From Candidatus Kaiserbacteria bacterium (GTDB lineage Bacteria > Patescibacteriota > Minisyncoccia > Phycocordibacterales > UBA2100): 64,000 nt of DNA. Made by a program: the position numbers and the translations under genes. The notes beneath the pieces are model-generated. The model was not told where the DNA came from. It made no database searches and was given only the letters and a program-made list of their open reading frames with translations. Shown piece after piece: positions 1 to 48,195 of the stretch (positions are counted from its first letter, which is position 1; the number at the start of each line of letters is the position of its first letter). The DNA is taken from assembly GCA_023267655.1 (NCBI GenBank), contig JAHFMV010000001.1:31954-95953 (forward strand), read 5' to 3'.

Positions 1-409
1 ATACATTCGCGAACACAACCTCACCAACGTCGAACTGCGTCCGTCAATCACCCACGACAAAGTACCTGAAGCCATAAACTCCTTTGACATCTGCATCAGC
101 TACCCGTTGAAATTTCGCGATGGTGCGACATCGCCGTTCAAAATCTACGAATATCTCGCCTGCGGAAAACCGGTCGTGTCCTCGGATTTGAAAAGCATGC
201 GCGAGGAGTTCGGTGACATCCTCGCGTACGCCGAAGCCGAAAATGCGGAGTCACTCGCACGTACGCTCAAGAAATTGATTGACAACCCCGCAGCCCGAAG
301 CGCGGCCGGCGAAGCCGGCCGCGCCTTCGTTGAGAACGGCAGAAGCTGGAAATCCGTCGCAGGAAAGATCATTGCTTTGTATGCGGTAATCGAACAACCG
401 AACAGGTAA
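1..409 (+). CDS. glycosyltransferase family 1/4, C-terminal part (5' end lies outside the window)
   Basis: Frame 2 is open from base 2. The translation ...VELRPSITHDKVPEAINSFDICISYPLKFRDGATSPFKIYEYLACGKPVVSSDL... carries the EX7E-type 'E-Y-L-A-C-G-K-P-V' signature of GT1/GT4 C-terminal Rossmann domains. Stop TAA at 407-409. Confidence 0.7.
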   Translation, partial: YIREHNLTNVELRPSITHDKVPEAINSFDICISYPLKFRDGATSPFKIYEYLACGKPVVSSDLKSMREEFGDILAYAEAENAESLARTLKKLIDNPAARSAAGEAGRAFVENGRSWKSVAGKIIALYAVIEQPNR

Positions 410-426
410 CTGGTCGTTCCACTCGC

Positions 427-807
427 TTATTCCATGAGCGGCCTCATATCGTCAAAGGGAGGTACATACGATGTACCATGTGCTTGGAGATATACATGCA
501 ATTTTTCTTCAAGCCGCGGAATATTTTGGTGGGCGATTTTCCATATTGTCCCAAGTTCGAGCATAAAATAATCATGCGAAATGATATTGCGTAGTCCGAC
601 AATCATCTTCCACGGTGCGTCGATCTCGTTCTGTGTATCCGCATCCAGTTTTTTCGCGAGTTCCCCGATGACTTGCAGCTGCATGATAACGGCGCTTTGC
701 GTCTTGGAGTCCGACAGAAATGCTGGTTCATCGAATCCCGTGATATATTCCGTGGCTTTCTTGCAGGCAGCTATGATGAGATCAATGTAGACATTATTGT
801 CTTTCAT
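427..807 (-). CDS. hepT: HepT-like (DUF86) toxin of a type VII HepT/MntA toxin-antitoxin pair
   Basis: 126-aa ORF with the R-x4-H-x-Y motif (GLRNIISHDYF). It overlaps the 3' end of the upstream nucleotidyltransferase gene by 14 nt. Confidence 0.75.
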   Translation of the reverse strand: MKDNNVYIDLIIAACKKATEYITGFDEPAFLSDSKTQSAVIMQLQVIGELAKKLDADTQNEIDAPWKMIVGLRNIISHDYFMLELGTIWKIAHQNIPRLEEKLHVYLQAHGTSYVPPFDDMRPLME

Positions 808-1090
808 AGATGATCTTCAAATCGCGTTTGATGTAGGGGCGCATTCGGGCGACAACCTGTGTATCCGGCACCAGATCTACTTCAACCCCCAGGATATTTT
901 TAAGGTCTTCCTCCGCCTCTTGCTTTTCAAGAAAACTAATCGGATGTCCTTCGTCAGAGAACAAGAAATCCGCATCACTATCGGCTCGATTGTCTCCTCG
1001 TGCGCGCGAACCGAAGACGCCAACCTTGCGGAAGCCGTACTTCTTGAATATTGGCCGCGCCTTCTCGACAAGTGAATCTAGATCTTCCAT
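794..1090 (-). CDS. mntA: MntA-like minimal nucleotidyltransferase antitoxin
   Basis: G-S-x9-13-D-x-D motif (GVFGSRARGDNRADSDADF). Start chosen at MEDLDSL (ATG 1088-1090). The longer ORF-track start at 1189 reads through the duplicated glycosyltransferase segment in antisense and is probably not real. Confidence 0.7.
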   Translation of the reverse strand: MEDLDSLVEKARPIFKKYGFRKVGVFGSRARGDNRADSDADFLFSDEGHPISFLEKQEAEEDLKNILGVEVDLVPDTQVVARMRPYIKRDLKIIYERQ

Positions 1091-1147
1091 ACCCACGATG
1101 GTAGCATATTTTTCGCCATATCGCTGTATGTGGTTAGGCAGGATTTT

Positions 1148-1240
1148 GCGGCCGGCGAAGCCGGCCGCGCCTTCGTCGAAAATGGCCACAGCTGGCGTGC
1201 GGTTGCAGAAAAGATTCTCGCACTCACGAGCCTCTTTTGA
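1148..1240 (+). repeat. decayed duplicate of the glycosyltransferase 3' end (gene remnant)
   Basis: 29 nt identical to 303-331 (gcggccggcgaagccggccgcgccttcgt), then about 70% identity for a further 55 nt. It translates in frame to AAGEAGRAFVENGHSWRAVAEKILALTSLF*, against AAGEAGRAFVENGRSWKSVAGKIIALYAV... in the intact gene. Confidence 0.7.
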
Positions 1241-1251
1241 AGTGGTAACGA

Positions 1252-1542
1252 CTATCGGCGTGGGGATCCGAATACTTTTTCTTCGAGTTTGCCGAGGCGG
1301 ACTTCGGTCTTTGTGTCCCGCAGCTGCTGCTCGATTGAGTTGACCTGGGTCTGGAGTGCATATACCTGATCTTTGGTGGCAAGTCCGTCCATTCGTGCGT
1401 CAATGCGGGCTACATCTTCTGCGACGGCGCCGAAGCCCTTCTCCATCCGCGCATCAATGCCGACAACATCTTCGGCAATCGTCTCTACGAGCTTCGTCAA
1501 TTTGTCGATTTTGTTCTCGAGGGTTGGTTTTGCGGATTTCAT
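1252..1542 (-). CDS. hypothetical small coiled-coil protein with an internal tandem repeat (DV.GIDARM x2)
   Basis: ORF with ATG at MKSAKPTLENKIDKL. The repeat is visible in both nucleotide and peptide sequence (…EDVVGIDARMEKGFGAVAEDVARIDARMDGL…). Confidence 0.45.
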   Translation of the reverse strand: MKSAKPTLENKIDKLTKLVETIAEDVVGIDARMEKGFGAVAEDVARIDARMDGLATKDQVYALQTQVNSIEQQLRDTKTEVRLGKLEEKVFGSPRR

Positions 1543-1561
1543 ATGCGGCAGTATAGCATGG

Positions 1562-1732
1562 TCATTCTTTGGCATTACGCACCGCTTCAATCTTCTTGAT
1601 AGTACGCTCAAGCGCTGCTCCGCACGTGTTGCAGAGGCGCGCCTGATTGAAAAGGTAGCCGCGGCCGACGCTGTAGCCAGATTTTCTGTCGGGAATTTTC
1701 TTATTGCAGAGATCGCAGAGTTCGATGTTCAT
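1562..1732 (-). CDS. 56-aa zinc-ribbon protein (CxxC…CxxC)
   Basis: MNIELCDLCNKKIPDRKSGYSVGRGYLFNQARLCNTCGAALERTIKKIEAVRNAKE*. It is absent from the ORF track because it is under 60 aa. It sits immediately upstream of, and overlaps, the coiled-coil gene. Confidence 0.45.
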   Translation of the reverse strand: MNIELCDLCNKKIPDRKSGYSVGRGYLFNQARLCNTCGAALERTIKKIEAVRNAKE

Positions 1733-1893
1733 CGTGTGATGTTATCACGCATCGATTGCGCGCAAGATTGCGGAGCTGCCTTGATTGTTGTCGATCATGC
1801 ACAGGACGAAAATGAGGTGCAAATGTGGGGTGAAGTACACCGAGCTCGCGCCCGGGCGGTTCAAGAATTTTTGGGAGGATTGAGGACAGCCGG

Positions 1894-3087
1894 TTAGCGG
1901 CGCGGGACGAAGAGCGTGCGCGGAAAGAATTCGTTGTACTCCTCCTCGTTGAACCACGCGCACTTGATGTCGAAGAGCTTGAGACCGGGCACGAGGCGGG
2001 TGAGTGCGAGCGCGTAGATCGCGAGCTGCGCGATCGGCTTGTTGGTTCGTGCGTCCGGTTTGTAATCCAAGATATGCACGGCGCCATTGCGCACCTGCAA
2101 GAAATCGATGTGACCGGTGATGGATCGGTCGGCCGCGCCGGTGCGCGGTGCGAGCTCGATGTGGTGCTGTTGCTCGAGCGCGGTGATGTCCGTCTCCGCT
2201 AGCCAGATCGGGATCTCGATTGCAACCGTGACGCTGTCGTTGGTGAGCATGAACTTCTGCAGCGTCTCGTGTCGCAACTTGTTGTTGCCAACGGCCGGAA
2301 TGATGAGGCCGGCAATGCGGGTCGCGATGTTCTCCTTGCGGTTGACGATCACGCGCGTGATGTCCGCGAAGTCAGGCTGCGCTTGCGACGCGCGGCCGCG
2401 ATCTTCCGCACGAAAGAGGTCGTGCGGACAAATCAGTGGCACGGCCTCCAAGAAATTCGCGAGCGATGCGAAGCGCGTGTCGCCGTGGCGCTTCTCGTCG
2501 AGTTCACCACGACGGAGAAATTCTAGCTTCGGCCGGTGGAACGCGTAGCCATAGACCTGGCGGTGATAGAGCTTGATCGACCGAAGCGTTTGCTCGGGAG
2601 GGAAGAGATGCCGGCCGCGATCACGCAACCGCGAATAGCTCATGAGGTCATGATGCTGCGCGAGCCAGCTCGAGAGCGTCGAGGGAGCGATGTGGCGACC
2701 GCTCTTGGATTTGATGCGCGCTACCGTGTCCTCCAGCGAGTAGCCAAGATTGTAGGTTGAGAGCGCATCGATCACGGTGCGCAGCGGGTAGGTTTTGTTT
2801 TTGAGCGCGGCGGGGCCGGGCGTGAAGACGCGCTTGCACGATGCGCATCGCCACAGTTGCACGATCTCCAACTTCTTCTTGCGCGTGCCACGGCGCGTGA
2901 CGACGTGGCTGCCGCAGTGCGGACAGGCGTCGGGTTGCTTTGCGGTGAGCGGGACGCGGGCGATGCGGGGGATGGGGGACATACTATTGTATGTGTTCAC
3001 CGTATCATGCAGATCACGGATTTTGAATGGAGAGCTCACGAATTCTGGACGCGTGAGCGCACGCGTTTTGGATGCGGAGCGGCTCAC
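1894..3087 (-). CDS. N-terminal zinc-ribbon plus C-terminal PD-(D/E)XK-like nuclease-fold protein (possibly mobile-element associated)
   Basis: Zn ribbon CPHCGSHVVTRRG…WRCASCKRVF. The C-terminal region GHIDFLQVRNGAVHILDYKPD fits a D…(D/E)xK nuclease motif. The true start may be the internal ATG at 2982 (MSPIPRIARV…). Confidence 0.5.
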   Translation of the reverse strand: MSRSASKTRALTRPEFVSSPFKIRDLHDTVNTYNSMSPIPRIARVPLTAKQPDACPHCGSHVVTRRGTRKKKLEIVQLWRCASCKRVFTPGPAALKNKTYPLRTVIDALSTYNLGYSLEDTVARIKSKSGRHIAPSTLSSWLAQHHDLMSYSRLRDRGRHLFPPEQTLRSIKLYHRQVYGYAFHRPKLEFLRRGELDEKRHGDTRFASLANFLEAVPLICPHDLFRAEDRGRASQAQPDFADITRVIVNRKENIATRIAGLIIPAVGNNKLRHETLQKFMLTNDSVTVAIEIPIWLAETDITALEQQHHIELAPRTGAADRSITGHIDFLQVRNGAVHILDYKPDARTNKPIAQLAIYALALTRLVPGLKLFDIKCAWFNEEEYNEFFPRTLFVPRR

Positions 3088-3132
3088 GGATATTGAGCAA
3101 GAGGAGGCGCGCGGAGCGCGCGGTTGAGCCGA

Positions 3133-3570
3133 CTATTGGGTGCCGGTGTCGGGGAGTTCCGCTGGCTCCGGAGGAGCGTTGCCGTCATGCGACGACTGCT
3201 CCGCGCCCTGCGGTTGCGGGTTGTCGTTTGCTGCGGGTGGGATGAGCACCAATGGTGTTGACGAGGATACATCTAATAGAGAGGACGGTGCGACTGGGGG
3301 TGTGCTGGTCGCGGCATCAACCGGTGTGGTAGTGGTTGGGGTGTCCGCATGCATCTCCAATGCGGATGAGCCGCTCGGCGCCCCCGCGCCGTCTCCTACC
3401 GGCGTTGTGATGCTGGCGGCTGATGATTGGCTTCCTCGAAACACCGCTTCGAATTGCTCCGGCGTGACGCAGGTCGAGCCGACGCAGAGTTCGTCGGTGT
3501 TCACGCGGCCGAAATTTCCCACCTTGGCGAAGAAGTCGGTGATGCCGTCTGAGGCGGAAACCGAGCCACG
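3133..3570 (-). CDS. C-terminal tail module homologous to the C-terminus of the 1959-aa giant protein; possibly a frameshifted continuation of the 613-aa gene
   Basis: The frame is open from 3570 with a GTG start at 3522. The peptide …GITDFFAKVGNFGRVNTDELCVGSTCVTPEQFEAV…GAPSGSSALEMHADT…PPAANDNPQP aligns with the giant's tail …GIGEVFARVFRAKDALCINDTCVNEDQLKAM…GAPGGSSALEIHADT…PPAANDNEPN. A 40-nt stretch of nucleotide near-identity lies at 3341-3380 versus 5731-5770. Confidence 0.4.
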   Translation of the reverse strand, partial: RGSVSASDGITDFFAKVGNFGRVNTDELCVGSTCVTPEQFEAVFRGSQSSAASITTPVGDGAGAPSGSSALEMHADTPTTTTPVDAATSTPPVAPSSLLDVSSSTPLVLIPPAANDNPQPQGAEQSSHDGNAPPEPAELPDTGTQ

Positions 3571-3613
3571 TCACCAAGGCAACTTTGCAGACCTGCAAAA
3601 ATGCGTCGCTGAC

Positions 3614-5455
3614 TCAACTACAGTGGGCGAGTGAAGCACGTGTTCTAGGACCGACGGCGCCGTAGCCGGTCGTCGTCGAGGAACCGCTTGCGACAATTTC
3701 TTTGGAACGTTGGTACATCTGGACAGCGGTTTGTGTCAGCCTTCCAAAATAGCCGGTGTCGTTGCCCGGAACTAGAAGATGTCGTCCAATGAGATGCCGT
3801 TGCAGCATCGCCACGTCTGTGCCACGGAACCCAACGGAAAGATTGCGCGCGAGCACCGGACACGCGCCTGCGAGTTGCGGGGGAGAGGAGGAAGCGAGGA
3901 CCTGAACATCTGGAATTGCCGGCGGCGGCATTGTCAGCGGCATCGGATTGGATGAAGGCGGCGTGGCAGAAGAGGGAGGCGTTGCAATGGCTGGAACGGC
4001 AGGCGTACCCGGAGTCGGGGTAACCGGGCTCGAAGGTGATGCGGGCGTCAGCGACCGCCACCTGGCGTCATACTCTGCTTGCATGGCCGCGATCGTATCG
4101 CGCACCGACTTCGTGCCATATGCGGTCGTGATCACGTCGTCATAGCGATACGGAAAAATGACGTACTTCGCGTGGTAGGGATGCGGATCGACTGAAGAGC
4201 TTGGGCGCAGTGTGATCGTGTGCAGGTTCGCAAACTTGATGACTCCGTCGTTCGCTCCTTGCGCGACAGTGTACGAAACGGAGCGCGTATCATTCTTGAG
4301 CGTCGGGTCATAAAACCACGCGATCGTAACGTCGTCAGAAGAAGGACCGGAAGCGTTCTCAAACGTGACCCAGCGGAGGTCGATCTGAGGGAAGCCGGAG
4401 TTGTACCCCTGGTTCATTTGGGTGATTGAAGGGATCTCGACTTGCGCGACACCGCTCGGCGATGGCGTGAAGTACCGGCGATAGCCGCTGGTAAAGTAGA
4501 AGGTCGGCAGTTCAAAGAAGCCATTGCGCGTCTTTGCTCCTGCTCCCTTGTTCTCGATGGTGATGTCGTATGCGAGATAGTTGTCAGAAGCAGAGACGGA
4601 CTGTGCGAGATGCAACGTGTCTGCAGCATTCCAAGGTCCCGCATAACTCGGCCCGTAGTCCCAGTTCATCATGGTCATGTCGCCAAAGTCGACGTGGTTT
4701 TGCGCAAGGCTACATGATTGATCTGCAAAGCCGTCGCAGGTGATCGTGGGTGCGTTCGAGCCGGTCGCGACGATCGGAACCATGCTCGTTTGGTTGCCGA
4801 CGTACGTGCAGAAAGCACCGGCTTGAGTCGGATTCCAGTAGCCCTGATGCACGTCGCATGAACTTGCGGTGCCAACTGCACGCGCCATAGCGTTCGCGTC
4901 AGCTTCGTCCTGATCGTGGAACGCGACTTGCAAAGCGGCGCCCATGTTGGCGTGCAGGGCGTTGTGCGGCATCGGATCTTGCAGGGAGGTGCCGACGGCA
5001 CGTTTGCTGTAAAACTCGTAGGTCGCTCCGGTGTTGCGGTCGAGCTTCGCGCTGTAGGCCGACTTGTCGATCGATATCAGACGGTTTTCCGAAAATGCTG
5101 AGTAGTAGGGATCAAGCGTCACGGCCGACGAAACAAGGGTGTCCTTGAAGTCGGGGGGCGGCGCGAGCGTCGTACAGTCAGCTCCAATATCCCACAAGCG
5201 TACCAAGATGTTGGAGCCGGGCGTGCCGACCGGAAGCGGCTTCTTGAAGAGACATAATCCCGATCCGTGATCGGCGAGCGTGCAGCGATTTTGGAAATCG
5301 TTGGCGTCGGTGCCTACGAACCACACGTCTGCCGTGACTGGCGTATTTGGGCAGCCTGGGTACTGCGCCGCGAGCTGTGCTCCCACTGAATTGGCTCGTT
5401 GGGACAACAGGACCGGTTCAATCCAAGATGCTTGTGCAAAGGACGAGGCCGGCAC
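3614..5455 (-). CDS. secreted protein with a C-terminal peptidoglycan-binding domain (PG_binding_1-like) and a Pro/Thr-rich linker
   Basis: 613-aa ORF. The C-terminal LQRHLIGRHLLVPGNDTGYFGRLTQTAVQMYQ matches the PGBD consensus. An N-terminal signal-peptide-like stretch (…GTLILSSVIGATLVVPASSFA|QA) lies upstream of the track's GTG start and has no canonical ATG/GTG/TTG. Confidence 0.7.
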   Translation of the reverse strand: MPASSFAQASWIEPVLLSQRANSVGAQLAAQYPGCPNTPVTADVWFVGTDANDFQNRCTLADHGSGLCLFKKPLPVGTPGSNILVRLWDIGADCTTLAPPPDFKDTLVSSAVTLDPYYSAFSENRLISIDKSAYSAKLDRNTGATYEFYSKRAVGTSLQDPMPHNALHANMGAALQVAFHDQDEADANAMARAVGTASSCDVHQGYWNPTQAGAFCTYVGNQTSMVPIVATGSNAPTITCDGFADQSCSLAQNHVDFGDMTMMNWDYGPSYAGPWNAADTLHLAQSVSASDNYLAYDITIENKGAGAKTRNGFFELPTFYFTSGYRRYFTPSPSGVAQVEIPSITQMNQGYNSGFPQIDLRWVTFENASGPSSDDVTIAWFYDPTLKNDTRSVSYTVAQGANDGVIKFANLHTITLRPSSSVDPHPYHAKYVIFPYRYDDVITTAYGTKSVRDTIAAMQAEYDARWRSLTPASPSSPVTPTPGTPAVPAIATPPSSATPPSSNPMPLTMPPPAIPDVQVLASSSPPQLAGACPVLARNLSVGFRGTDVAMLQRHLIGRHLLVPGNDTGYFGRLTQTAVQMYQRSKEIVASGSSTTTGYGAVGPRTRASLAHCS

Positions 5456-5537
5456 GACAAGTGTTGCGCCAATGACGGACGAAAGAATGAGAGTGCCGTG
5501 GGTCAGATACCGAATATGGTATCACGCATCCGGGCAC

Positions 5538-8500
5538 TTACTCGTTGACAGCTGTGGGTGTGGCCACATCGACGTTGGGCTCATTGTCGTTCGCGGCTGG
5601 TGGAACAGGTGGATCATTCTCCACTGCTCCCTCCTCGCTTCCCGCAGTGCCATCTCCGGTCTCGGTCGGAGTGGTGGGGCCGGTGCTGGTTGCGGTCGGG
5701 GAACTATCCGTCGACGGCGTCGTTGACGCGGTGTCCGCATGTATCTCCAATGCGGATGAGCCGCCGGGCGCTCCAGCTGATCCTCCCGGTCCTGTTGTTG
5801 CAGCGCCGGCGGCTGATGCTGAGAGCATCGCTTTGAGCTGGTCTTCATTGACGCATGTGTCGTTGATGCAGAGTGCATCCTTTGCGCGGAAGACGCGTGC
5901 AAATACTTCGCCGATGCCGTTGGTGGCGTCGGCGAGCCACTGTGTCAGCCGCGCAAAGAGGGAAGCGAAGAAGCGGCTGGTGAAGGTGCCTTCCGGGATT
6001 TCGGGCGTGGTAGTCGCGAGGTCTTCGAGTTTGAGGTTGAGGTCTTGGATCGCCTTTGCGAGGAGGGGCGTGATGCGGCCGTAGTCAACGCTCCACGGCG
6101 TCGAGGTTGCCCCGAGCGGGTCGATGCCGTTGTCGCCGTTGGTGGTCACGGCCCACGGGAAGACCTGTTGCAATTCCTGCGCGATGAAGCCCGTGGTCGT
6201 CGCGTGTGCCGGGTCGGTGATGAAGTCGAAGTCGCGCACCGTGAGACGCATCAGCGCGTCCAGCCCCAGCGTCGTCGTCGCGATGTTCTCTTTGATGCGG
6301 CGATCCGAAGAGGTGTTGTAAGAGACGATGCTTTCATTTTGCGCGATGTTGCCTGCCACCCCGCCCGAGGTATTTAGGAACAACACCGACGAGCCGCTAT
6401 AACTGGCACTCGTGCTCCTCATTGTAATGGCTTGTTGTGTGCTAGCGTTCCAACTTAAATATAATTTTGATCCATCGGAAGTTGCGCCGATGCCGACGTT
6501 GCCGGCGCTGTTCGCGTTGAGCGAAAGTGTCGACCCTTCAATTGCAAGTGGCTTATATACGGCTCCCGCACGGTCGTAAGCGCGGACCTGGCCTGACGTT
6601 CCGTCCCACGTAAGCTCCGTGCCGACACCGTTCGTTGGTGCCACCTGACTCGTCGCGCGTATCGTGCCAAAGACGTCCAATTTTCCGGTTGGAGTAGTTG
6701 TGCCGATGCCGACGTTGCCGCCGCCCGTGACAACAAAATGCGTGGCGGTCGAGGAGCCGATCACAAATTCAGGGACGCCACTGCCGAGGGCATTTGGATT
6801 GACGGAGAGGAGGGCCCACGGACTTGTCGTGCCGATGCCGACGTTGCCGGCGTTCAATGTCATGACATCGCCACCGGTGCGGGTGTAGAGACGGATTTGA
6901 TCCGTTTGCGACGTGGGCCGGTAAATTCCTCCCGCTTCGAGACTATCCGACTGGAACGACAGTGCACTCAAAGATGCGTTAGGTGAATTTATAACTGAAT
7001 ACGTATTGCCTGTGCTCGAGACCACTAATGTCTTGGCGGGCGACGTGGTGCCGATGCCGACGTTGCCGCTGGAGTTAACGAGGAAGTAGGTGGCCGTGCT
7101 GGAGCCGATGGCGAAGGAGTTGATGCCTGCGGCTGCATGCACGCTCAGCTGCGCCCACGGGGACGTGGTGGCTATTCCGAATTTCCCGGCGCTGTATGCC
7201 GAGCCGTCGTTGTTCACCTGGAAGAGAGTAGTCGACGCGGAGTTCGCGACGAGGAATGATTGCGTTGAAGCCGATGTGTCAGAGCCCCAGAGCGTGAGTT
7301 TAGAGTATGGGGTGGAGGTGCCGATGCCGACGAGGTCGGTGCTATCGGCGAGGAATGATTGTGTGTTGTCGTTTTGCCAGCCGCCGGCGGTGGCGTTTAC
7401 GGGTGCGATGAGGGCGCCGGTGAAGTAGGTCGCAGCTGCAGTACCGTCAATTATTGTCCCGTCAGTAGTGCCACGTGCTTCGATATAGTCCGTTGTGCCG
7501 TTCATATCAACAACGGCTGTTGCCATGCCCGTGGCGTCAAAACTACTGCCGCGATAACGGCCAACCCCAACTGGGATCGCATTTTTGTATATTGATCCAT
7601 CGCAGTATGCGACTGAAACGGACTGGCCAAAATCTCCGCAACGAACCGAGAGAGTGATGATGTACTTGCCTGGGACTGTCGGCGTGAATTTGTTCGAGGC
7701 GAAATTGTTATTGGTGTCGAATGTCTCTGTGGACCAGGTCAAAGCAGTGTCGACGTTCGCCGACACCGTCTGATCCGTCCCGTTCTTGTTCACACTAAAA
7801 CTCGGCCCACTGGTAGCGGTCGTGACGCCCTGCCACGTGCCGCCGGAGTTCTTGAACTCGAGCATGCCCGCGTTGTCGCGGAAGCCGTAGCCCGAGGTGC
7901 CTTCGGTCGCGCCGAAGTTCAGATAACCGCTTGCCGGGAAAAGCGCGTTGCCGCTCGCCGTGAACGTCGTCGTCGCCGTGCCGCCGAAGTATGCGCTGTA
8001 TGCAGAGAGCATTGTCGTCGAAGCTCCGCCGTTGAAGAGCGTGAGCGTTGTTGTTGCGCTCGTCCCTGCGACCGCGTGGGTAAAGGGATCGCCGCCCGAG
8101 CCGGAGCCGCATGCGGACGCATTTGCCGAGACCGTGCCGTCGCTACCCACTTGCAAGCAGCGCGTTCCCGTCCCGCCTGTGTTCGAGATCACGAGCGCCG
8201 TCGTCGATGCGGTCGTAGCGGAGAGCATCGTTGTCGATGCGAAGGGGATTGAAAGTGCCGTGCCCGCGGGTGCGGCGAAGTTGATGGTGAGATTTGATCC
8301 GCCAACGAGTGCACCGGCAGTTCCGGAGAACGAAAGCGCGGTGCCGGCCGACAAGGAACTTGTCGCGACCGATTGATACGCAGTGCTACCGCCGTACAAG
8401 AGTTGTGAGACGGGAGCGGTCGTGGTGCCGGTACCACCTTTCGCGATTGTGAGCGTTCCCGTGATTGTCGAGAGCGTGGAGGTTGCGATCCACGACGGCT

Positions 8501-11417
8501 TGCCGTTTTGGAGCGTGAGCACCAGGCCGTCAGTGGAAGAGGCAAGCGTGGTGAGCGAGCTTGCGGAGTTCGCGTAGAGAAGATCACCGGAGGTGAACGA
8601 CGAGAGACCGGTGCCACCCTTGTTTGCGGCGATCGTCGTCGCGTTCCACGTGCCTGTCCCGATCGTTCCGAGCGTCGTGACGTTCGTTGACCCTGCCCAC
8701 GTCGAGAGCGCGGTGTTCTCGACGTTGTTGAGGGCGAGCGTTGACTTGAGATTTGCGGTTGAGGTGCCGGCGAGCGTACCGGTGCCGGATGCAAAGAGGA
8801 CATCACCAAGCGTGTAAGAGGTGAGGCCCGTGCCACCGGAGGCGACACCGAGCGTGCCGCTGATGTTCGCGAGCGTCGTGGTGGATACCCATGTTGGTGT
8901 TCCAGAGACGAGCCCAAGGACTTGGCCGTTGGTACCGGCTGATGTTGTCGCGACAGGGCCGGTACCGTTGCCGAGGACGACTGCACCGCTTGCGACGTTC
9001 GCCCAGCCGGTGCCGCCGTTTGATACGCCGAGGATGCCGGTGACATTCGACGCGAGATCGACGAGTGCGGTGGTGATCGATCCCGCAGTTGCTTTGAGAA
9101 ACCCGGAGAGTGCACCGATTGAGAGGTTGCCGAAGAAGCCGCTCGTTGATGAGGCGTACGTTGCGGAGAGGTTGGTGGTCGAGGCGGTGCCGAGTGTAGC
9201 CTTGCCGGTCACGTCGAGCGTGCCGGCGATCGCGACATTGCCTGCCGTGTCGATCGTCGTCGATGCGGTCGCACCGAACTTCGCTTGGAGGGCGGAGAGA
9301 AGTGTTGAAGATGCTTGTTGAATATTGGTGACGTACGTCGTGGTTGTCGGCGCGAGGAAGTTGCCGGAGACTTCCCACGACTTGCCGAAAAGAGATGACA
9401 CGGCAGCGTAATCCGTGCCGGCGACGGCCGAGGTGACTTGGCCTCCCGTTGTTGTTTTCAGGAGTGAGCCACTGTTGATGCCGGAGATCCACAAGTTGGT
9501 GGAGCTCGCGGTTGTTGCCGTGATCATTGTTGTGGAGGCGAAAGGAAGCGAGCTCGCGATGCCGTCGCCGCGGATTGTGGTGGTGGCGGTGCGGCCGATA
9601 GCGACGTAGTCGAAGGCATCGAGCCGCGTTGTTGTTGCGTTCGTCGCAACGAGGGTGGTGGATGTGAGGTTAGTGATTGTCGCCGCGACGGATGAGAGTG
9701 TGTCGATGATGCCCGTTGTGAAGCGGCCGAGTGTCGCGAAAAGATTTGTCGATGTCGCATTGGTCGCTGTGGCGTTGGTGAAATCCGCGTTCACGAAGTG
9801 CGAGGTCGATGAGGCGAAGAGACCGGATTGCGCCCAGATGATGGATGAGGTCGCGGCGGCGAGTTGTCCGTAGTTCGAAAGGAACGTGAAGGGTGACGCG
9901 GAACCGACCGCAGTGTCGTCCGATCCGCAGATCACATTGCCGTTTGCATCGGTCTGCAGAAGTTGTCCCGACGACGAGCAATCGAGGCCGGAGAGTGTGA
10001 GACCGCCGGCGAGACGGATGCCGTTTGCAAATGTCGATGTTGCTGTTGTTGACGTGACATTGAGTGCGGTTGTTTGCAGACCCGCGCCGAAGGTCGAGGT
10101 TGCGCTGCCGAGAATTGTTGTCGTTGCGGTGCGGCCGACAAAGATGCCATCCAGTGATGAGAGTGCGGTGGTTGATGCGCCGCCACCCAAGAGGACGAGT
10201 GAGGTGGTTGCGCTTTGTCCTGCGACCGCATGCGTCCACGCATCGTACGATGCAAGACCGCCACCACCGCTCGTGATGCCGAGCGATGAAGTGGCAGCAA
10301 GATTATAGCCGCCGGAAGAATTTCCCAATAACAGTTGACCGTATGTCGGAGACGCTGATGTTGCGGTGCCGCCTTTCGCGATTGCGAGAACGCCGGAGAA
10401 ATCCGTTGCCGTGATTGATCCGCCGGTGATCGTTGCACCACTGATCGTGCCGCCATCGATTGTGGGGGAGTGGAGTTTAGTGTCTGTGAGTTCTTCGATG
10501 CGACCGACGCTGCCTACGGTTTGGTAGATCGTCTGGCTTTCGGAATGTGATGCCGCGGCGACGCTCGCGATTTGTGATTGGAGCGATGTTGCGAGTGCGG
10601 TCATGCGTGCATCCAGTAGAGCGGCGTTGATCCCACCTTCGGTGACGGTGCGGACGGTTTCGCGGATGCGTTCGATGACCGGATTGTTGACCACTGTTAG
10701 AGAGCGCTGCGCCTCTAACGTGGCAGGTTTGGTTGTTGGGGATGACCCTTTCTCTGAAGAGGTTGAGAGCGTTGTTGCTGGTGGTGGCGGCGCTCCGGTT
10801 GGTGGTTGCAGATGTTGTTGCGTCGAAGGTGTTGCGATTTCTGTGGGCGAACAGTTTCCGATGATCGGGCACACCGCGTTGAAAACATTTGATGCAAGCG
10901 CATCGATCCACGGAAGCGATGCGACGGCTGCGAGTTGCGATTGGATATTTTCCGGTGCGTGTGTTGCTGCGTCGACGGCTGCGGCGAATTTTTGTGGCGC
11001 GATGTTTTGAAAGGCGAGGGCGCCGGATGCCATGACCGCGAAGAGCGTAAGTGTTGCGAGAAATGCAGTGCCCGCGGCACGCACGCGTTGTGCGCGTTTG
11101 ATGTGTTGTTTGAAGCGGTCGTTGAGTTCGCGGTGTGGTGCGACGGTGATTGGAGATGTTACGGCGTGGCCGTTGGCACGCTCCTCTTTGCGGAGTTCGC
11201 GAGTTCTCTCGCGCAATGCATCTTTTCGGCGGGCTTGGTTCGCGCGCCATTCTGAAAGTGACGCAGGATTGACGTACCACTCGCGGCCTTCAAGCCTGCC
11301 GTGGACGACGCCCTTGCGACATAGGCGGCTGATGTAGTCAGCGGAAATTTCGACACCAGTTGCGGCGTCTCTCACGGAAACGAAGCGCACACCGGCCACA
11401 ATAATTTCAGATGACAT
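5538..11417 (-). CDS. giant (1959 aa) membrane-anchored tail-fibre-like surface protein with N-terminal excisionase-like HTH, one TM helix, GNVGIGT(T/A)SP beta-repeats and a Peptidase S74 intramolecular-chaperone domain
   Basis: ATG at 11415-11417. Residues 1-60 resemble the HTH_17/excisionase fold (…VSVRDAATGVEISADYISRLCRKGVVHGRLEGREWYV…). TM helix AAGTAFLATLTLFAVMASGALAF. Four or more GNVGIG(T/A)TSP repeats. SSDRRIKENI…GFIAQELQQVFPWAV matches the phage endosialidase/tail-fibre chaperone (S74) autoproteolysis module, about 6310-5990 nt. Confidence 0.85.
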   Translation of the reverse strand: MSSEIIVAGVRFVSVRDAATGVEISADYISRLCRKGVVHGRLEGREWYVNPASLSEWRANQARRKDALRERTRELRKEERANGHAVTSPITVAPHRELNDRFKQHIKRAQRVRAAGTAFLATLTLFAVMASGALAFQNIAPQKFAAAVDAATHAPENIQSQLAAVASLPWIDALASNVFNAVCPIIGNCSPTEIATPSTQQHLQPPTGAPPPPATTLSTSSEKGSSPTTKPATLEAQRSLTVVNNPVIERIRETVRTVTEGGINAALLDARMTALATSLQSQIASVAAASHSESQTIYQTVGSVGRIEELTDTKLHSPTIDGGTISGATITGGSITATDFSGVLAIAKGGTATSASPTYGQLLLGNSSGGYNLAATSSLGITSGGGGLASYDAWTHAVAGQSATTSLVLLGGGASTTALSSLDGIFVGRTATTTILGSATSTFGAGLQTTALNVTSTTATSTFANGIRLAGGLTLSGLDCSSSGQLLQTDANGNVICGSDDTAVGSASPFTFLSNYGQLAAATSSIIWAQSGLFASSTSHFVNADFTNATATNATSTNLFATLGRFTTGIIDTLSSVAATITNLTSTTLVATNATTTRLDAFDYVAIGRTATTTIRGDGIASSLPFASTTMITATTASSTNLWISGINSGSLLKTTTGGQVTSAVAGTDYAAVSSLFGKSWEVSGNFLAPTTTTYVTNIQQASSTLLSALQAKFGATASTTIDTAGNVAIAGTLDVTGKATLGTASTTNLSATYASSTSGFFGNLSIGALSGFLKATAGSITTALVDLASNVTGILGVSNGGTGWANVASGAVVLGNGTGPVATTSAGTNGQVLGLVSGTPTWVSTTTLANISGTLGVASGGTGLTSYTLGDVLFASGTGTLAGTSTANLKSTLALNNVENTALSTWAGSTNVTTLGTIGTGTWNATTIAANKGGTGLSSFTSGDLLYANSASSLTTLASSTDGLVLTLQNGKPSWIATSTLSTITGTLTIAKGGTGTTTAPVSQLLYGGSTAYQSVATSSLSAGTALSFSGTAGALVGGSNLTINFAAPAGTALSIPFASTTMLSATTASTTALVISNTGGTGTRCLQVGSDGTVSANASACGSGSGGDPFTHAVAGTSATTTLTLFNGGASTTMLSAYSAYFGGTATTTFTASGNALFPASGYLNFGATEGTSGYGFRDNAGMLEFKNSGGTWQGVTTATSGPSFSVNKNGTDQTVSANVDTALTWSTETFDTNNNFASNKFTPTVPGKYIITLSVRCGDFGQSVSVAYCDGSIYKNAIPVGVGRYRGSSFDATGMATAVVDMNGTTDYIEARGTTDGTIIDGTAAATYFTGALIAPVNATAGGWQNDNTQSFLADSTDLVGIGTSTPYSKLTLWGSDTSASTQSFLVANSASTTLFQVNNDGSAYSAGKFGIATTSPWAQLSVHAAAGINSFAIGSSTATYFLVNSSGNVGIGTTSPAKTLVVSSTGNTYSVINSPNASLSALSFQSDSLEAGGIYRPTSQTDQIRLYTRTGGDVMTLNAGNVGIGTTSPWALLSVNPNALGSGVPEFVIGSSTATHFVVTGGGNVGIGTTTPTGKLDVFGTIRATSQVAPTNGVGTELTWDGTSGQVRAYDRAGAVYKPLAIEGSTLSLNANSAGNVGIGATSDGSKLYLSWNASTQQAITMRSTSASYSGSSVLFLNTSGGVAGNIAQNESIVSYNTSSDRRIKENIATTTLGLDALMRLTVRDFDFITDPAHATTTGFIAQELQQVFPWAVTTNGDNGIDPLGATSTPWSVDYGRITPLLAKAIQDLNLKLEDLATTTPEIPEGTFTSRFFASLFARLTQWLADATNGIGEVFARVFRAKDALCINDTCVNEDQLKAMLSASAAGAATTGPGGSAGAPGGSSALEIHADTASTTPSTDSSPTATSTGPTTPTETGDGTAGSEEGAVENDPPVPPAANDNEPNVDVATPTAVNE

Positions 11418-11889
11418 GATTATTCGGAAAGCCTAGGTATTGCCTAGAATTTCCGTCATTGGCTCATGATAGCGTGCCACCGTCTGGCAGTGTGCGGTTA
11501 TCCACTTTCAAGTGGAGCGCGGGATGGTATCGCGCTAGCTGGTACAGCGGAGCCGGAGTCCACATCGTGCATACCGTATGCGCCGATTTTCCTCGGAAAT
11601 GAGTGTCACCACGACCATCACGCGAAGCCTTCAGTCGATGTGGCTTGTGATCTCGACCAGCGGTTCTCGAGCGGCTTCTATCGCCAGCTTATGCGCACTT
11701 TACATCCGAGATTCGTTGTTCATATATACCCGGAATAGCTAGCATTTACATGATATCTCGGTATCTCGGGTCATAGTACGGGAGGCGGCCAAATTGCGGT
11801 GCACAACGCCATAACGCAATTGAGTGCGCCAGCGCTGGAGCGACACGCGCTCGTCGATTTGGAGTTGGCGGAAGTTACACTGTAGAGAT

Positions 11890-11930
11890 AAAGCAGGTGC
11901 ACGTTTTCCAGATGACGAGCGCCTTCATGG
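11890..11930 (+). repeat. decayed duplicate of the 3' end of the monooxygenase gene (12744-12790)
   Basis: Identical 21-mer gcacgttttccagatgacgag at 11898-11918 and 12748-12768, with about 85% identity over about 36 bp. The reverse translation MKALVIWKTCTCF… compares with GMDALVIWKTCIYLITNMF in the intact gene. Confidence 0.6.
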
Positions 11931-11955
11931 TGCGAAATCATGGTATAATCGCGAA

Positions 11956-12243
11956 ATGCGCATTACGGAAGCACAGGCACGGCTGCTGAAAGAAGGGGTC
12001 CGCGAATACCTGCCACAGGCGAGTGTGTATCTGTTCGGGTCGCGTGCGGACGATGCGAAGCGTGGCGGCGACATTGACGTGCTTGTCGTAGGGGAGCGGC
12101 CGCTTCAACCTTTAGAGAGCAGCCGCGTCAAGGCGAGATTTTATGAACGTTTCGGAGAGCAGAAAATCGACATTGTGAGTTTCGCAGAGGGCGAACATAC
12201 CACGTTCCGCGATCTGATAGAATCCGAGGCGGTGCCTCTCTGA
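11956..12243 (+). CDS. mntA: MntA-like nucleotidyltransferase antitoxin (second copy)
   Basis: MRITEAQARLLKEGVREYLPQASVYLFGSRADDAKRGGDIDVLVVGE carries the GS…D.D motif. It is preceded by TGgTATAAT at 11941-11949, only 6 nt before the ATG, which implies a leaderless mRNA. Confidence 0.7.
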   Translation: MRITEAQARLLKEGVREYLPQASVYLFGSRADDAKRGGDIDVLVVGERPLQPLESSRVKARFYERFGEQKIDIVSFAEGEHTTFRDLIESEAVPL

Positions 12244-12244
12244 A

Positions 12245-12700
12245 ATGCATATGCCCGATACCGCGAACATCAAACGCGCCCTCCTCGAGAATGTTGCATC
12301 GCTGCAGCGCGCGGGGCGCGTCTTGGCGCGTTCATACGAGAAATGCCGCACCATCACAGTTCCTTTCCCAGCCGAAGACGACGAGATGCTCGAAACCATA
12401 GAAGCGTTGACTTCGCGCTTCGCGCGCGCCTCCGATATCTTGACACAGCGAGTCGGCAAATCGATCGTCGCGCTTTCTCGCGAAGATGCGCCGTCTATTA
12501 TTGATAGGATACACCTCATGGAGAAAATCGGCGCGATCGCAAGCGAAAATACGCTCATCGCGATCCGAGACGTTCGCAATGAAATCGCGCACGAATATAC
12601 CGAAGAAGGCGTACAGAAAGTATTTGAAAAATGCATGCCGCTCGTACCGCAGCTCCTCGTGATGATTGATTCGGTCGCGAAGTACGCTGAGAAACTATAA
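12245..12700 (+). CDS. hepT: HepT-like (DUF86) toxin (second copy)
   Basis: R-x4-H-x-Y motif (IRDVRNEIAHEY). The start is 1 nt after the stop of the upstream mntA. Confidence 0.7.
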   Translation: MHMPDTANIKRALLENVASLQRAGRVLARSYEKCRTITVPFPAEDDEMLETIEALTSRFARASDILTQRVGKSIVALSREDAPSIIDRIHLMEKIGAIASENTLIAIRDVRNEIAHEYTEEGVQKVFEKCMPLVPQLLVMIDSVAKYAEKL

Positions 12701-12707
12701 GCGAAAA

Positions 12708-14057
12708 TCAGTGCGCTTTGCGAAACATGTTTGTGATGAGGTAGATGCACGTTTTCCAGATGACGAGTGCATCCATGCCAAAGAGCCGCGCTACGTGGCG
12801 CTCTTTGCGATAGCGTTTATAGGCGACCGCGTAGGACATCGTCGTGTGGACGACGAGTGTGTAGAGGGAATGGAAATTTTCGGGAAAATATTTCTCGAGG
12901 ATCATTTCGACGTTTGAGCGAGAGACAAACAGCGGCATTTCGTAGCGGTCTTTGAGGTCGATGAAGCGCGCTTTGCATACGTCGGCGAGAACGTCGGTGT
13001 CCGGCTTACGCCGCGCTTCGAAAATTTGGAACACGGTTTCGATGTCCGGGTAATACGTGTCGAGGCATTCGGCAAAAATGCGACAGTCTTCAAATGCAGC
13101 GTTGATTCCTTGACCATAAAAAATAGTGACCGCATGCGCGGCGTCTCCGAGCAGAATGCAAAAGTCACGGTAATACCATTTCGATGTGTAGAGCGAGGTG
13201 AACGGCGTCGATGGCTGCGTAAGGAAATCGTTGACGTGGGGTGCAAGATGCGGATACAAATCGGGGAAGTGTTCGGTACAAAATCTTTCGAATGATTCTG
13301 TCGATTGGATCGATTCAAAACTGTCCGGACCGGTAAGCGGAAGCGTGATCGTACAGGTAAAAAAGTTGCCTCGGTTCGGAATGCCGAAAATTGCTGCTTT
13401 TTTCTTTGACCATAGATGGAAGGCGTTCTTTTGGAACGGAATTGATCCGTCGGTCGGTGCTGGCACGTACATGTTTTTATACCCCCAATCCATGACGTCG
13501 AGTTTCGCACGGAGGTGCCCGGCCTGTTCCATTTCTTTGCGAACCACCGAATGGATGCCGTCCGCGCCGAGGAGGAGCTCTACTTTTTTCGTGGTATGCG
13601 CTTTTGTTAGTTGGTTTTCAAATTCTATTTCACGCGTCTCGAAATCAATGTGGACGCAGCGCTCATTGTAGTGCGTGTGAATCGAAGAATATTTTTTCAT
13701 TTCTCGGACGAGCGCGCAGTTTAAGTCATTGCGATTGATCGACCACTCGGCGAGTCCTTGCTTTTCGCCATAGGCCTGATACAGAAGTCCGTTTTTCTGG
13801 TGGATGATGCGGCCGGCTTCACGCGTGCAGAGTTTTTTCACTTCGTCCCACATCTGCACTTCCTGCAGCGCACGGATGCCGCGCACGCAGAGCGACTGGT
13901 TGATTGATTTGTACGAAACCACGGGGAGGTTTTCGATGCTTTCACGAGATTCATATATTTCGACGATGAAGTTTCTTCGCGCAAGATAGATCGCAAGCAG
14001 TGAGCCGCCCATGCCAGCGCCGATTATCGTGACCTTCTTGTCAGGTGTCTTTATCAT
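12708..14057 (-). CDS. FAD-dependent monooxygenase, kynurenine 3-monooxygenase-like
   Basis: N-terminal GAGMGGS dinucleotide-binding motif; SIN…RG, LLLGADGIHSVVR and LLGDAAHAVTIFYGQGINAAFEDC match KMO/UbiH-family blocks. Confidence 0.7.
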   Translation of the reverse strand: MIKTPDKKVTIIGAGMGGSLLAIYLARRNFIVEIYESRESIENLPVVSYKSINQSLCVRGIRALQEVQMWDEVKKLCTREAGRIIHQKNGLLYQAYGEKQGLAEWSINRNDLNCALVREMKKYSSIHTHYNERCVHIDFETREIEFENQLTKAHTTKKVELLLGADGIHSVVRKEMEQAGHLRAKLDVMDWGYKNMYVPAPTDGSIPFQKNAFHLWSKKKAAIFGIPNRGNFFTCTITLPLTGPDSFESIQSTESFERFCTEHFPDLYPHLAPHVNDFLTQPSTPFTSLYTSKWYYRDFCILLGDAAHAVTIFYGQGINAAFEDCRIFAECLDTYYPDIETVFQIFEARRKPDTDVLADVCKARFIDLKDRYEMPLFVSRSNVEMILEKYFPENFHSLYTLVVHTTMSYAVAYKRYRKERHVARLFGMDALVIWKTCIYLITNMFRKAH

Positions 14058-19592: not shown

Positions 19593-19600
19593 CGTTGCAT

Positions 19601-19726
19601 ATGAAAGTTATCAAATCACTCTCGTTCACCCTTTTTGTCTTCGGACTCCTCGGCTGGCTCTACATCGTCTTGAATTCCGCGATACACCCGTGGACTTTGG
19701 CGATGCCACTTTACACACTGCGTTAG
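19601..19726 (+). CDS. 41-aa single-TM peptide, paralog of 22985-23203
   Basis: MKVIKSLSFTLFVFGLLGWLYIVLNSAIHPWTLAMPLYTLR*. It shares about 80% nucleotide identity over about 85 bp with the other copy. Confidence 0.4.
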   Translation: MKVIKSLSFTLFVFGLLGWLYIVLNSAIHPWTLAMPLYTLR

Positions 19727-22950: not shown

Positions 22951-22984
22951 TGCCACTACAGTATTCATACCATATAGTCTATTT

Positions 22985-23203
22985 ATGAGAATTCTTAAAG
23001 CCGCATCCTTTACACTTTTTGTCTTCGGACTCTTGGGATGGCTGTATATCGTCCTCAATTCGGAGATACATCCGTGGACGCTTTCGATGCAGCTCACTCA
23101 TTTTCTGCCGTTTCCGCGCGAGGATACGGCGGGGGAGATTAGTTTTGTCGTGTCGCTCGTTTCTTTCTTTGTTTGGAATCTCGTGAAAGATGGCCAGCGA
23201 TAA
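22985..23203 (+). CDS. small single-TM protein, paralog of 19601-19726
   Basis: MRILKAASFTLFVFGLLGWLYIVLNSEIHPWTLSMQ…. Confidence 0.4.
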   Translation: MRILKAASFTLFVFGLLGWLYIVLNSEIHPWTLSMQLTHFLPFPREDTAGEISFVVSLVSFFVWNLVKDGQR

Positions 23204-46218: not shown

Positions 46219-46273
46219 TATACGTGTAGTGACAATGTATTGACATACCACGTAACGAGTATATACTCGCCAT

Positions 46274-46546
46274 ATGACCACTATTCAAATTCGTATCGAC
46301 GAAAAGACGAAACGCAAGGCGAGCAAAGTATTTGGCAAAATGGGGCTCAACGTTTCGAGCGGTATCAAGGTGTATCTTACCCGTGTCGCACAAGACGAAG
46401 CGATGCCTTTTGTGGTACGTACTGAAAATGGCTACACCCAGGAAGAAGAGCGACAGTTGATCAAGGAAGCAGAGTATGCGGAGAAACATGGTAAGCGATA
46501 CACCTCTGCCCGCGAGGCTCTGGACGATATTTTACGTAAGAAATAA
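46274..46546 (+). CDS. dinJ: RelB/DinJ-family antitoxin
   Basis: MTTIQIRIDEKTKRKASKVFGKMGLNVSSGIKVYL… (IRID.E.K..A, GL..S.AI..FL pattern). The promoter TTGACA-N16-TATACT lies directly upstream. Confidence 0.7.
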   Translation: MTTIQIRIDEKTKRKASKVFGKMGLNVSSGIKVYLTRVAQDEAMPFVVRTENGYTQEEERQLIKEAEYAEKHGKRYTSAREALDDILRKK

Positions 46547-46553
46547 AGAAATT

Positions 46554-46835
46554 ATGTATTCGCTGGTTTTTGCGGCAAAAGCGAAGCGATCATTACGGAA
46601 ATATAAAAAGAGCGGGATATTTCCACAGGAAAAATTTGAGGCGGCGGTCGCTCTCTTGTGTGTGGGGAAACCTTTGCCGCCCTCATACGATGATCATGCC
46701 CTCAGAGGTGAGCTGGTGAGTTTTCGAGAATTCCACCTCGGGTATGACCTTCTGGTCAAATATCGGCGGCGTGCTGAATTACAAGTCATTAACATCGTTG
46801 CGATAGGAACCCATAGCGAACTTTTCGGCGGTTGA
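46554..46835 (+). CDS. yafQ: YafQ/RelE-family mRNA interferase toxin
   Basis: …LLCVGKPLPPSYDDHALRGELVSFREFHLGYDLLVKYRRRAELQVINIVAIGTHSELF matches YafQ blocks (PLP..Y.DH.L.G…R.LHI..D.LL.Y…GTHS.LF). Confidence 0.7.
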   Translation: MYSLVFAAKAKRSLRKYKKSGIFPQEKFEAAVALLCVGKPLPPSYDDHALRGELVSFREFHLGYDLLVKYRRRAELQVINIVAIGTHSELFGG

Positions 46836-46845
46836 GCTCGTCCAA

Positions 46846-47118
46846 GCGCTCTCAACATCCCCATGAAGCTGCGCCATTTTGCGGCGCAAAAACGTACTCC
46901 ACCCCGTGAGATAAGAGTGTAAAAATTTTGTAAAAAAATAAGCGGATTGATATACCCAAAATGTGGCGGTCTAAGGCAATCGTCGCTATCTCACGGGGTA
47001 TAATACGAGTAATGATAGGCGCCAACAGGGCTACAGCCCGCTCCGCTCGCCCGAATAGGGCCGCGTATTTTCGTGTGGGCACAACTCTCTTTTTTGCTGT
47101 TTATTCCGCGTTCATTTC
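46846..47118 (+). repeat. copy A of the giant-gene 5' leader/start module (promoter plus signal-peptide start), with two internal insertions and a truncated ORF
   Basis: gcgctctcaacatcc…gcgccattttgcggcgcaaaaacgtact…tataatacgagtaATGataggcgccaacaggg…ggccgcgtattttcgtgtgggcacaactctcttttttgctgttt aligns with 48532-48670. It encodes MIGANRA…AAYFRVGTTLFFAVYSAFISRF and then a stop. Confidence 0.7.
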
Positions 47119-47160
47119 TCGATTCGATGTTGATAGCTTTGCATGGTATACTCATAGTCA

Positions 47161-47391
47161 ATGACTAAGACGCTCGAAATAATCCTTGAAAAAGCATCCG
47201 CATGGCCAAAGGAAGCCCAAGATGAGCTCGTGCGCGCTGCCAAACAGATCGAAGAAGCGCAAAGCGCGAGTGCGTATACGGCGACAAACGAAGAACTCAA
47301 GGCGATAGACGAAGGGTTATCGCAAATGAGGCGTGGAGAGTTTGCTTCTAAGAAAGAAGTCGATGCATTTTTCAAAAGTCGCAAGCCATGA
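47161..47391 (+). CDS. putative antitoxin (addiction-module component) paired with the downstream RelE/ParE toxin
   Basis: 76 aa, acidic, helical; ATGA overlap with the toxin gene. It is preceded by TGgTATACT with an 8-nt spacer before the ATG. Confidence 0.5.
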   Translation: MTKTLEIILEKASAWPKEAQDELVRAAKQIEEAQSASAYTATNEELKAIDEGLSQMRRGEFASKKEVDAFFKSRKP

Positions 47392-47790: not shown

Positions 47791-47820
47791 TCATATGGAA
47801 AAGCAGTGCGTCGATGTTCT

Positions 47821-48189: not shown

Positions 48190-48195
48190 ACCGCG

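Follow-up and report, generated by a model that had tools for sequence, protein, structure and literature searches.

Few genes of prokaryotes are as mobile as toxin–antitoxin modules, yet most of these modules carry no mobility gene, and the routes by which they move are largely unexplained. A comparable behaviour, insertion with long target duplication, has been described for restriction–modification (RM) gene units (Nobusato et al. 2000, Gene 259:99; Furuta, Abe and Kobayashi 2010, PMC2853133). Such RM units have no mobility genes, are flanked by variable repeats of more than 30 bp and occur mostly in naturally competent species, and their mechanism of insertion is not known; in their hypothesised life cycle they enter with a long direct duplication, the repeats of which are later used for amplification and release (PMC2853133). 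Here we analyse a 64,000-nucleotide stretch of DNA from a Candidatus Kaiserbacteria bacterium (the window), in which the 3′ end of a monooxygenase gene has gained a toxin–antitoxin module of the MntA/HEPN kind, about 770 nt long, with a copy of the gene's end on each side (Table 1). Because a gene-end copy was left on either side, the monooxygenase gene stayed intact.

The locus has most of the features by which Furuta et al. (2010) recognise their class. It holds a complete gene unit of less than 20 kb, the repeats exceed 30 bp (43 nt here and at least 68 nt at a further cassette, the first in the window), relatives 55–82% identical have an empty site with a single copy, no tRNA or Rfam family was found, and no integrase, transposase or phage gene was found among the open reading frames (ORFs) scanned with Pfam, which were part of the window's ORFs. 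The class also supposes that both repeats are copies of one resident sequence duplicated at insertion; the exact cores, the allele-like differences at several loci and the place of the native tail speak for one imported copy, although the monooxygenase-end pair by itself is compatible with decay.

The two copies of the monooxygenase gene end form a direct repeat of 43 nt with 84% identity and a spacing of 848, the sole family that a repeat search returned there. Between them lie 805 nt that contain both cassette genes. The exact core of the repeat, TGCACGTTTTCCAGATGACGAG, is 22 nt long, and a mismatch-free run of this length has p = 0.03 in this pair. It occurs exactly twice in the 64 kb, even when three mismatches are allowed, with none expected from 100 shuffles. 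An earlier reading made from the sequence alone (the sequence-only reading) had claimed a duplicated gene end with a 21-mer, and the duplication is confirmed with this slightly longer core. Alignment extends the similarity past the core to 43 nt and no further: gapped local alignment gave no support for a longer repeat, and the sequence left of 11887 matches 12690–12734 at shuffle level. Translation of both copies likewise agrees with what had been read from them, the distal copy giving TMKALVIWKTCTCFISTV* on the minus strand (asterisk, stop codon) and the intact gene ending in ...GMDALVIWKTCIYLITNMFRKAH*. A supposed relic of the neighbouring glycosyltransferase tail left of 11887 (ELAEVTL*) scored no better than shuffles and was dropped; a model built on it, with three successive duplications in situ, was given up as well.

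Relatives show the site without the insert. Close homologues of the monooxygenase are found in Patescibacteria (Kaiserbacteria and Adlerbacteria), and a conserved synteny of GH5 cellulase, flippase, monooxygenase and convergent GT4 glycosyltransferase is present in L003, L006, L007, L091–L093 and the P0005 contig (for P0005, from gene calls only). In the relatives the monooxygenase and GT4 genes are immediate convergent neighbours that overlap by 4–28 nt or are separated by a 184-nt gap. L007, L006, L003 and L091–L093 (identity 55–82%) each have a single monooxygenase end abutting GT4 and no cassette, so the repeat arose with the insertion and not before; the proviso that it might be older than the cassette thereby falls away. 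The window has the same synteny, yet 12.3 kb separate the glycosyltransferase stop (409) from the monooxygenase stop (12708). This interval contains, in order, the first cassette and a second copy of the glycosyltransferase end, a block of genes for giant proteins, then the distal monooxygenase-end copy and the second cassette, which is the MntA/HEPN module. Given the adjacency of the two genes in relatives, the whole of 410–12702 is a lineage-specific insert, and the giant-protein block too is absent between the same two genes in relatives.

Alignment of the junction with L007 locates the ancestral sequence. The monooxygenase tail that follows the proximal repeat is of the ancestral type, and the gene's last nine codons, its stop and an 11-codon relic of the glycosyltransferase end all lie between the proximal repeat and the cassette. 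The relic thus stands inside the repeat-bounded segment, overlapping the monooxygenase tail on the opposite strand, and is a remnant of the ancestral overlap of the two convergent genes. None of these elements has a counterpart beside the distal copy, which passes into unrelated sequence with no homology beyond the 43 nt. The distal copy had been taken for a decayed tail of the gene; it is a real copy, but the ancestral-type tail sits in the intact copy instead. With the native tail and the relic inside the bracketed segment, a plain 43-nt target duplication cannot give the observed order, whereas a single crossover with a circle that carries the tail does.

The first cassette has the same architecture, as the sequence-only reading had supposed: a 68-nt repeat of the neighbouring gene's end surrounds a HepT/MntA pair. 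The copies at 302–369 and 1148–1215 are 81% identical with an exact 29-nt core, and all 13 mismatches fall beyond the first 29 nt (p = 5e-4), the diverged part lying between the core and the cassette. Here, too, single crossover with a circle accounts for the order and plain duplication does not. The codon changes in this pair comprise six synonymous and five non-synonymous, and the frame of the relic is open to its natural stop. The two cassettes had also been suggested to be recent duplicates of each other. This was not the case, because their antitoxins and toxins align over the catalytic motifs only (BLASTP E = 0.02 and 0.07).

The same footprint recurs beyond this insert. Within the window, diverged copies of the end of an adjacent gene flank four of five toxin–antitoxin cassettes and a block of folate genes. 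Directly upstream of a gene for a 5021-aa protein, in an array of three cassettes at 46219–48672, the start of that gene (its promoter and first 10–25 codons) reappears after each cassette (46848–47117, 47697–47789 and 48534–48672); the three copies have a common left boundary, GCTCTCAACA, and the last two share 72 identical bases. The folate block is not a toxin–antitoxin module: its 3.3 kb encode dihydropteroate synthase, HPPK and an ATP-grasp enzyme, and are bracketed by a 107-nt direct repeat of 76% identity (19600–19706 and 22984–23090) that matches a gene for a small membrane protein at its 5′ end; of the two copies, the upstream one is a stub of 41 codons.

Homologous cassettes in two other contigs stand beside unrelated genes, each with its own local repeat. 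In L010 (61% toxin identity; positions 41–2471) an RNase III gene precedes a tandem of two different MntA/HEPN cassettes, of which the one is HepT-like and the other belongs to the 151-aa family of the second cassette; a second RNase III end comes after them. In L008 (70% toxin identity; a Patescibacteria-like contig; positions 4545–6542) three copies of at least the last 62 nt of a 570-aa gene (GWCNINNSGVIQAWA...), each with a stop, separate an MntA/HEPN cassette from a PIN cassette, and copies 2 and 3 share 43 identical bases. The RNase III pair differs by seven synonymous and one non-synonymous changes (p = 3e-4 against a neutrally decaying relic) and the L008 copies by five and two (p = 0.02 against the same expectation). 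These relics are too conserved for neutral decay. Like those of the glycosyltransferase pair, the copies look like alleles from another lineage. A gene for bAvd, a diversity-generating retroelement accessory protein, lies 3 kb downstream in L008.

To place these loci in a wider sample, we scanned metagenomes with the alignment of the toxin family, which gave 80 loci and 61 testable cassettes. Each cassette was given a conservative boundary and its 700-nt flanks were compared for direct repeats with a score of at least 20; 50 size-matched pseudo-cassettes in the same loci served as controls, and repeats in inverted orientation were also counted. Direct repeats bracketed 19 of the 61 cassettes and three of the 50 pseudo-cassettes (p = 8e-4), a figure that mixes target duplications with arrays spaced by intergenic repeats, because at least 10 loci have a third repeat copy nearby and several of the non-Patescibacteria repeats are low-complexity intergenic sequence in three or more copies. 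Inverted repeats bracketed one cassette out of 61, against the 19 bracketed in direct orientation (p = 9e-6). The repeat pairs are 35–298 nt long and 77–97% identical, none of the roughly 25 pairs being 100% identical. No sequence was common to the repeats of different loci, except in two contigs of one locus type.

In L016, L021, L052, L058, L072 and others the bracketing repeat occurs at least three times nearby and is often low-complexity intergenic sequence, which suggests that such metagenome loci are cassette arrays separated by repeated spacers.

The exact cores, the allele-like differences and the position of the native tail favour Campbell-type integration by a single RecA crossover, which we regard as the most likely route, with somewhat more confidence than doubt. 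Single-crossover integration yields the order gene, crossover, incoming end, insert, incoming start, crossover and resident end, and leaves both copies hybrid. At the monooxygenase, a circularised DNA from a related lineage would have carried the cassette together with a short stretch of the same gene's 3′ end, and would have recombined with the resident gene through a single RecA-type crossover inside the 22-nt identical core. The product would then consist of the gene body, the core, the incoming tail (ITNMFRKAH*, with the glycosyltransferase relic) and the cassette; beyond the cassette would come a short piece of incoming DNA, a second core and the old tail of the resident gene (TCFISTV*). 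A like event at the end of the glycosyltransferase gene would account for the first cassette, and repeated events at one site would produce arrays in which copies of local sequence stand between the cassettes. Through its flanking direct repeats the cassette could also be excised as a circle bearing its own homology arm, for which the predicted excision product is ...CTGTAGAGATAAAGCAGG-TGCACGTTTTCCAGATGACGAG-TGCATCCATGCCAAAGAGCC... and the predicted circle junction ...GTTTGTGATGAGGTAGA-core-CGCCTTCATGGTGCGAAATC.... In cassette-free strains, duplication in situ would predict a single ...IYLITNMFRKAH tail, and an imported allele ...KTCTCFISTV.

The most serious competitor is a long target duplication made de novo, in which 40–110 nt would be copied on site by a recombinase-independent event, the outer copy then decaying while the copy in the gene is kept by selection. 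We judge this unlikely, though it is well worth keeping in mind. It agrees with the published definition of the class and with repeats that span stop or start codons and leave the target genes intact, as in RM units; the changes in the monooxygenase-end pair are mostly non-synonymous, and the differences counted automatically in the metagenome pairs look neutral. To account for the nine-codon tail, stop and relic that have no counterpart at the distal copy, however, it needs an extra deletion. It also sits poorly with mismatches clustered around exact cores, with relics in L010, L008 and the glycosyltransferase that show too few non-synonymous changes for neutral decay, and with a set of about 25 pairs in which not one is perfectly identical and the maximum is 97%.

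Exact cores (22 and 29 nt) set in partly similar sequence, insertion at gene 3′ ends and tandem arrays with three repeat copies, which resemble accretion at an attachment (att) site, would also be expected if a recombinase acting in trans had integrated a non-autonomous element akin to a satellite or a cis-mobilisable element (CIME), the copies being attL and attR with exchange in the 22-nt core. This seems improbable to us, given that homologous cassettes are associated with unrelated repeats and unrelated genes, the repeats vary in length from 35 to about 300 nt, what is duplicated in one array is a promoter with a 5′ end and not a 3′ end, and the scanned ORFs include neither an integrase nor a transposase, nor was a tRNA or Rfam family found as a target. 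Chromosomal integrons and the dif modules of Acinetobacter commonly contain toxin–antitoxin cassettes, and arrays of cassettes separated by repeats are observed here too, so that attC or dif-like sites used by IntI or XerCD come to mind. The repeats are, however, the coding ends of housekeeping genes; they contain no RYYYAAC...GTTRRRY pattern, their folding z-scores lie within the shuffle range with no excess of hairpins, no 28-nt motif is common to the loci and no integrase was found among the ORFs scanned. We therefore rejected an attC, dif-like or hairpin nature of the repeats and consider an integron or Xer/dif-type cassette very improbable. Least credible of all is chance similarity, or an assembly artefact joining strain variants. 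The genome is metagenome-assembled and its copies differ as strain alleles would, but no chance matches are expected and a 43-nt repeat of 84% identity cannot mislead an assembly with k = 141. Two further assemblies of the same organism (L001, from ENA, and L002, from Logan) agree with the window at 100% identity across 6.9 and 4.8 kb, both copies included, which makes misassembly unlikely, and the same architecture occurs at many loci in many samples.

Several points weigh against integration by a single RecA crossover. A core of 22 nt is at the lower limit for RecA-mediated exchange, and the model requires that the resident gene previously had a different tail (TCFISTV*) and leaves the first gain of an arm for a new gene unexplained. 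We found no circular form of the cassette and no strain-level empty site or donor genome, the closest usable empty site having 79% monooxygenase identity. The monooxygenase-end pair on its own, with one synonymous and five non-synonymous codon changes, fits decay as well as an imported allele. Automated codon counts over 15 metagenome repeat pairs gave a neutral-like 21 synonymous to 67 non-synonymous changes, with unreliable frame assignment: either the allele-like signature is not general or the chosen frames are not real genes, and given those frames the count neither favours nor counters the allele model.

No database record was found for the exact monooxygenase protein of the window. P0149 (sample ERZ27296333) is a monooxygenase more than 90% identical to it that ends in ...LWKTCTYLVKNLFRKFQKSEKVS and has a longer tail, and P0121, from the same sample, is a copy of the HEPN toxin that is 91% identical; their contigs measure 650–1750 nt. 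Their source may be an informative sister strain.

The small nucleotidyltransferase of the second cassette matches Pfam NTP_transf_2 at 36.1 bits (cut-off 21) and Polbeta at 32.6 bits, and NCBIfam MntA_antitoxin at 23 bits, which is under the cut-off of 60. Its 151-aa partner gave no Pfam or NCBIfam match above threshold, scoring 14.2 bits against the Pfam HepT-like family (DUF86; cut-off 23.5). The sequence-only reading had placed an MntA–HepT pair between the copies; both genes are there, but the toxin is not a HepT by these models. Across 28 homologues of the toxin, T56, R58–R61, D64, D87, R111, N112, H116 and Y118 are invariant, which gives the HEPN motif RX4HXY, and sub-threshold matches to HepT-like and NTase_sub_bind are found in 25 and 22 of the 28, respectively. 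In a profile search with the family, the structure of Haemophilus HI0074 was reached at E = 0.004 and Csm6 HEPN domains came next. The 151-aa protein is thus a HEPN protein, a putative toxin with a minimal nucleotidyltransferase partner, functionally of the MntA/HepT type and outside the HepT family as modelled now. The evidence for its family is all sub-threshold and places it between the HepT-like and HI0074-like families. RNase activity and neutralisation by adenylylation are putative. The convergent monooxygenase stop lies seven bases beyond the toxin ORF. In the leader upstream of the cassette genes no −35 match is present, and a consensus sigma-70 scan gave no full match. The best NCBIfam match of the monooxygenase is VioC-like, far under the cut-off.

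The sequence-only reading also had the two cassettes bracketing the whole giant-protein operon. They do occupy both ends of this block, and the inner repeat copies (1148–1240 and 11887–11929) adjoin it, but the arrangement is best read as a by-product of where the convergent gene ends lie, with no evidence for the three parts as one element. On the simplest reading, the giant block was already between the two genes when each gene end independently received a cassette. The 397-aa protein of the block (1894–3087, minus strand) weakly matches a PD-(D/E)XK nuclease domain and the zinc ribbon of IS1595-type transposases. In the 1959-aa protein (5538–11417), internal repeats (6475–7364) accompany a Peptidase_S74 (endosialidase chaperone) domain. 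The second giant protein, that of 5021 aa, is encoded at 48597–63662, and toxin–antitoxin cassettes border both giant genes.

Table 1. Coordinates of the gene-end copies, cassettes and neighbouring genes in the window
Feature	Position	Strand	Remarks
Functional glycosyltransferase 3′ end (A1)	302–412	+	Repeat 302–369; exact core 302–330; stop 407–409
First cassette, HepT and MntA	427–1090	−	HepT 427–807 (Pfam HepT-like, 79 bits); MntA 794–1090
Second copy of glycosyltransferase 3′ end (A2)	1148–1240	+	Intact reading frame AAGEAGRAFVENGHSWRAVAEKILALTSLF*
Giant-protein block between inner repeat copies	1252–11417	−	1959-aa Peptidase_S74; 613-aa PG_binding_1; 397-aa PD-(D/E)XK and zinc ribbon
Distal copy (B2) of monooxygenase 3′ end	11887–11929		Minus-strand reading TMKALVIWKTCTCFISTV*, stop 11875–11877; core 11898–11919
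Cassette leader	11930–11955	+	Extended −10-like TGgTATAAT at 11941–11949, read directly from sequence
MntA-like minimal nucleotidyltransferase, putative antitoxin	11956–12243	+	95 aa; GS...DxD
HEPN-domain putative RNase toxin	12245–12700	+	151 aa; RNEIAHEY (RX4HXY); starts one base after the nucleotidyltransferase ORF
Glycosyltransferase 3′-end relic	12703–12738	+	AKISALCETCL*; from L007 junction alignment (RRIISLCGTGS* in L007)
Monooxygenase, FAD-dependent, kynurenine 3-monooxygenase/VioC-like, target gene	12708–14057	−	449 aa; FAD_binding_3
Proximal copy (B1), within intact monooxygenase 3′ end	12735–12777		Core 12746–12767
RelB/YafQ cassette	46274–46835		Upstream of 5021-aa gene
Cassette with antitoxin of no recognised family and ParE-type toxin	47161–47738		Upstream of 5021-aa gene
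DUF433/DUF5615 (PIN-like) cassette	47821–48429	−	

The four cassettes and the metabolic block of the window, together with the homologous cassettes elsewhere, suggest a common recombinase-independent route of gene gain that spares tightly packed neighbouring genes, and the exact cores and allele-like copies point to a homology-guided single crossover, which is a testable mechanism. More tentatively, and with real doubt, we propose that in Patescibacteria, and perhaps more widely, small toxin–antitoxin modules may be recombinase-free mobile cassettes with a short 'portable homology arm', taken from the end of a host gene. They would leave as circles through their flanking repeats, re-enter related genomes at the same gene end through one crossover by the host's RecA, and accumulate there as arrays spaced by allele-like copies of the local sequence. 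If true, this would be a concrete and testable explanation of how toxin–antitoxin modules that have no machinery of their own can move. As a practical matter, a short partial copy of a gene beside a small cassette can serve as a sign of recently gained genes in a metagenome-assembled genome. Full-text searches of the literature found no account of long target duplications around toxin–antitoxin cassettes in Patescibacteria, which is no proof of novelty.

Four known systems invite comparison. The cassettes resemble type VII HepT/MntA systems in that a small nucleotidyltransferase is followed directly by a HEPN protein. The toxin of the first cassette is a clear member of the Pfam HepT-like family, and that of the second has the RX4HXY motif, the tyrosine of which is the residue adenylylated by MntA in characterised systems; the second cassette differs in falling under the HepT and MntA thresholds of Pfam and NCBIfam and in being equally close to HI0074/NTase_sub_bind. 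Islands that carry an integrase and the satellites that lack one (CIMEs and the satellites of tycheposons), which reside at the 3′ ends of tRNA or protein genes, share the direct repeats of the target 3′ end and the tandem accretion. Here, in contrast, no integrase was found among the ORFs scanned and there is no fixed att sequence, the targets are unrelated and in one array include a 5′ end, and repeat length is highly variable. Campbell-type integration predicts the observed order, and keeps the gene intact when the fragment holds its 3′ end, but is known mainly as a laboratory tool and from plasmids; its natural use by cassettes with arms of 40–110 nt is what we infer here. With the RM-unit class the loci share a small addictive unit without a mobility gene, variable direct repeats of more than 30 bp that often span a stop or start codon, a single copy at the empty site and a target gene that survives. 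They differ in cargo and host (toxin–antitoxin modules and a folate block in Patescibacteria, as opposed to RM units in Helicobacter, Haemophilus and Neisseria), in repeat identity (77–97%, compared with 93–100%), and in having exact cores, allele-like synonymous differences at some loci and a native tail inside the bracketed segment. The footprint carries insertion with long target duplication beyond RM units, into toxin–antitoxin modules and the reduced genomes that Patescibacteria have.

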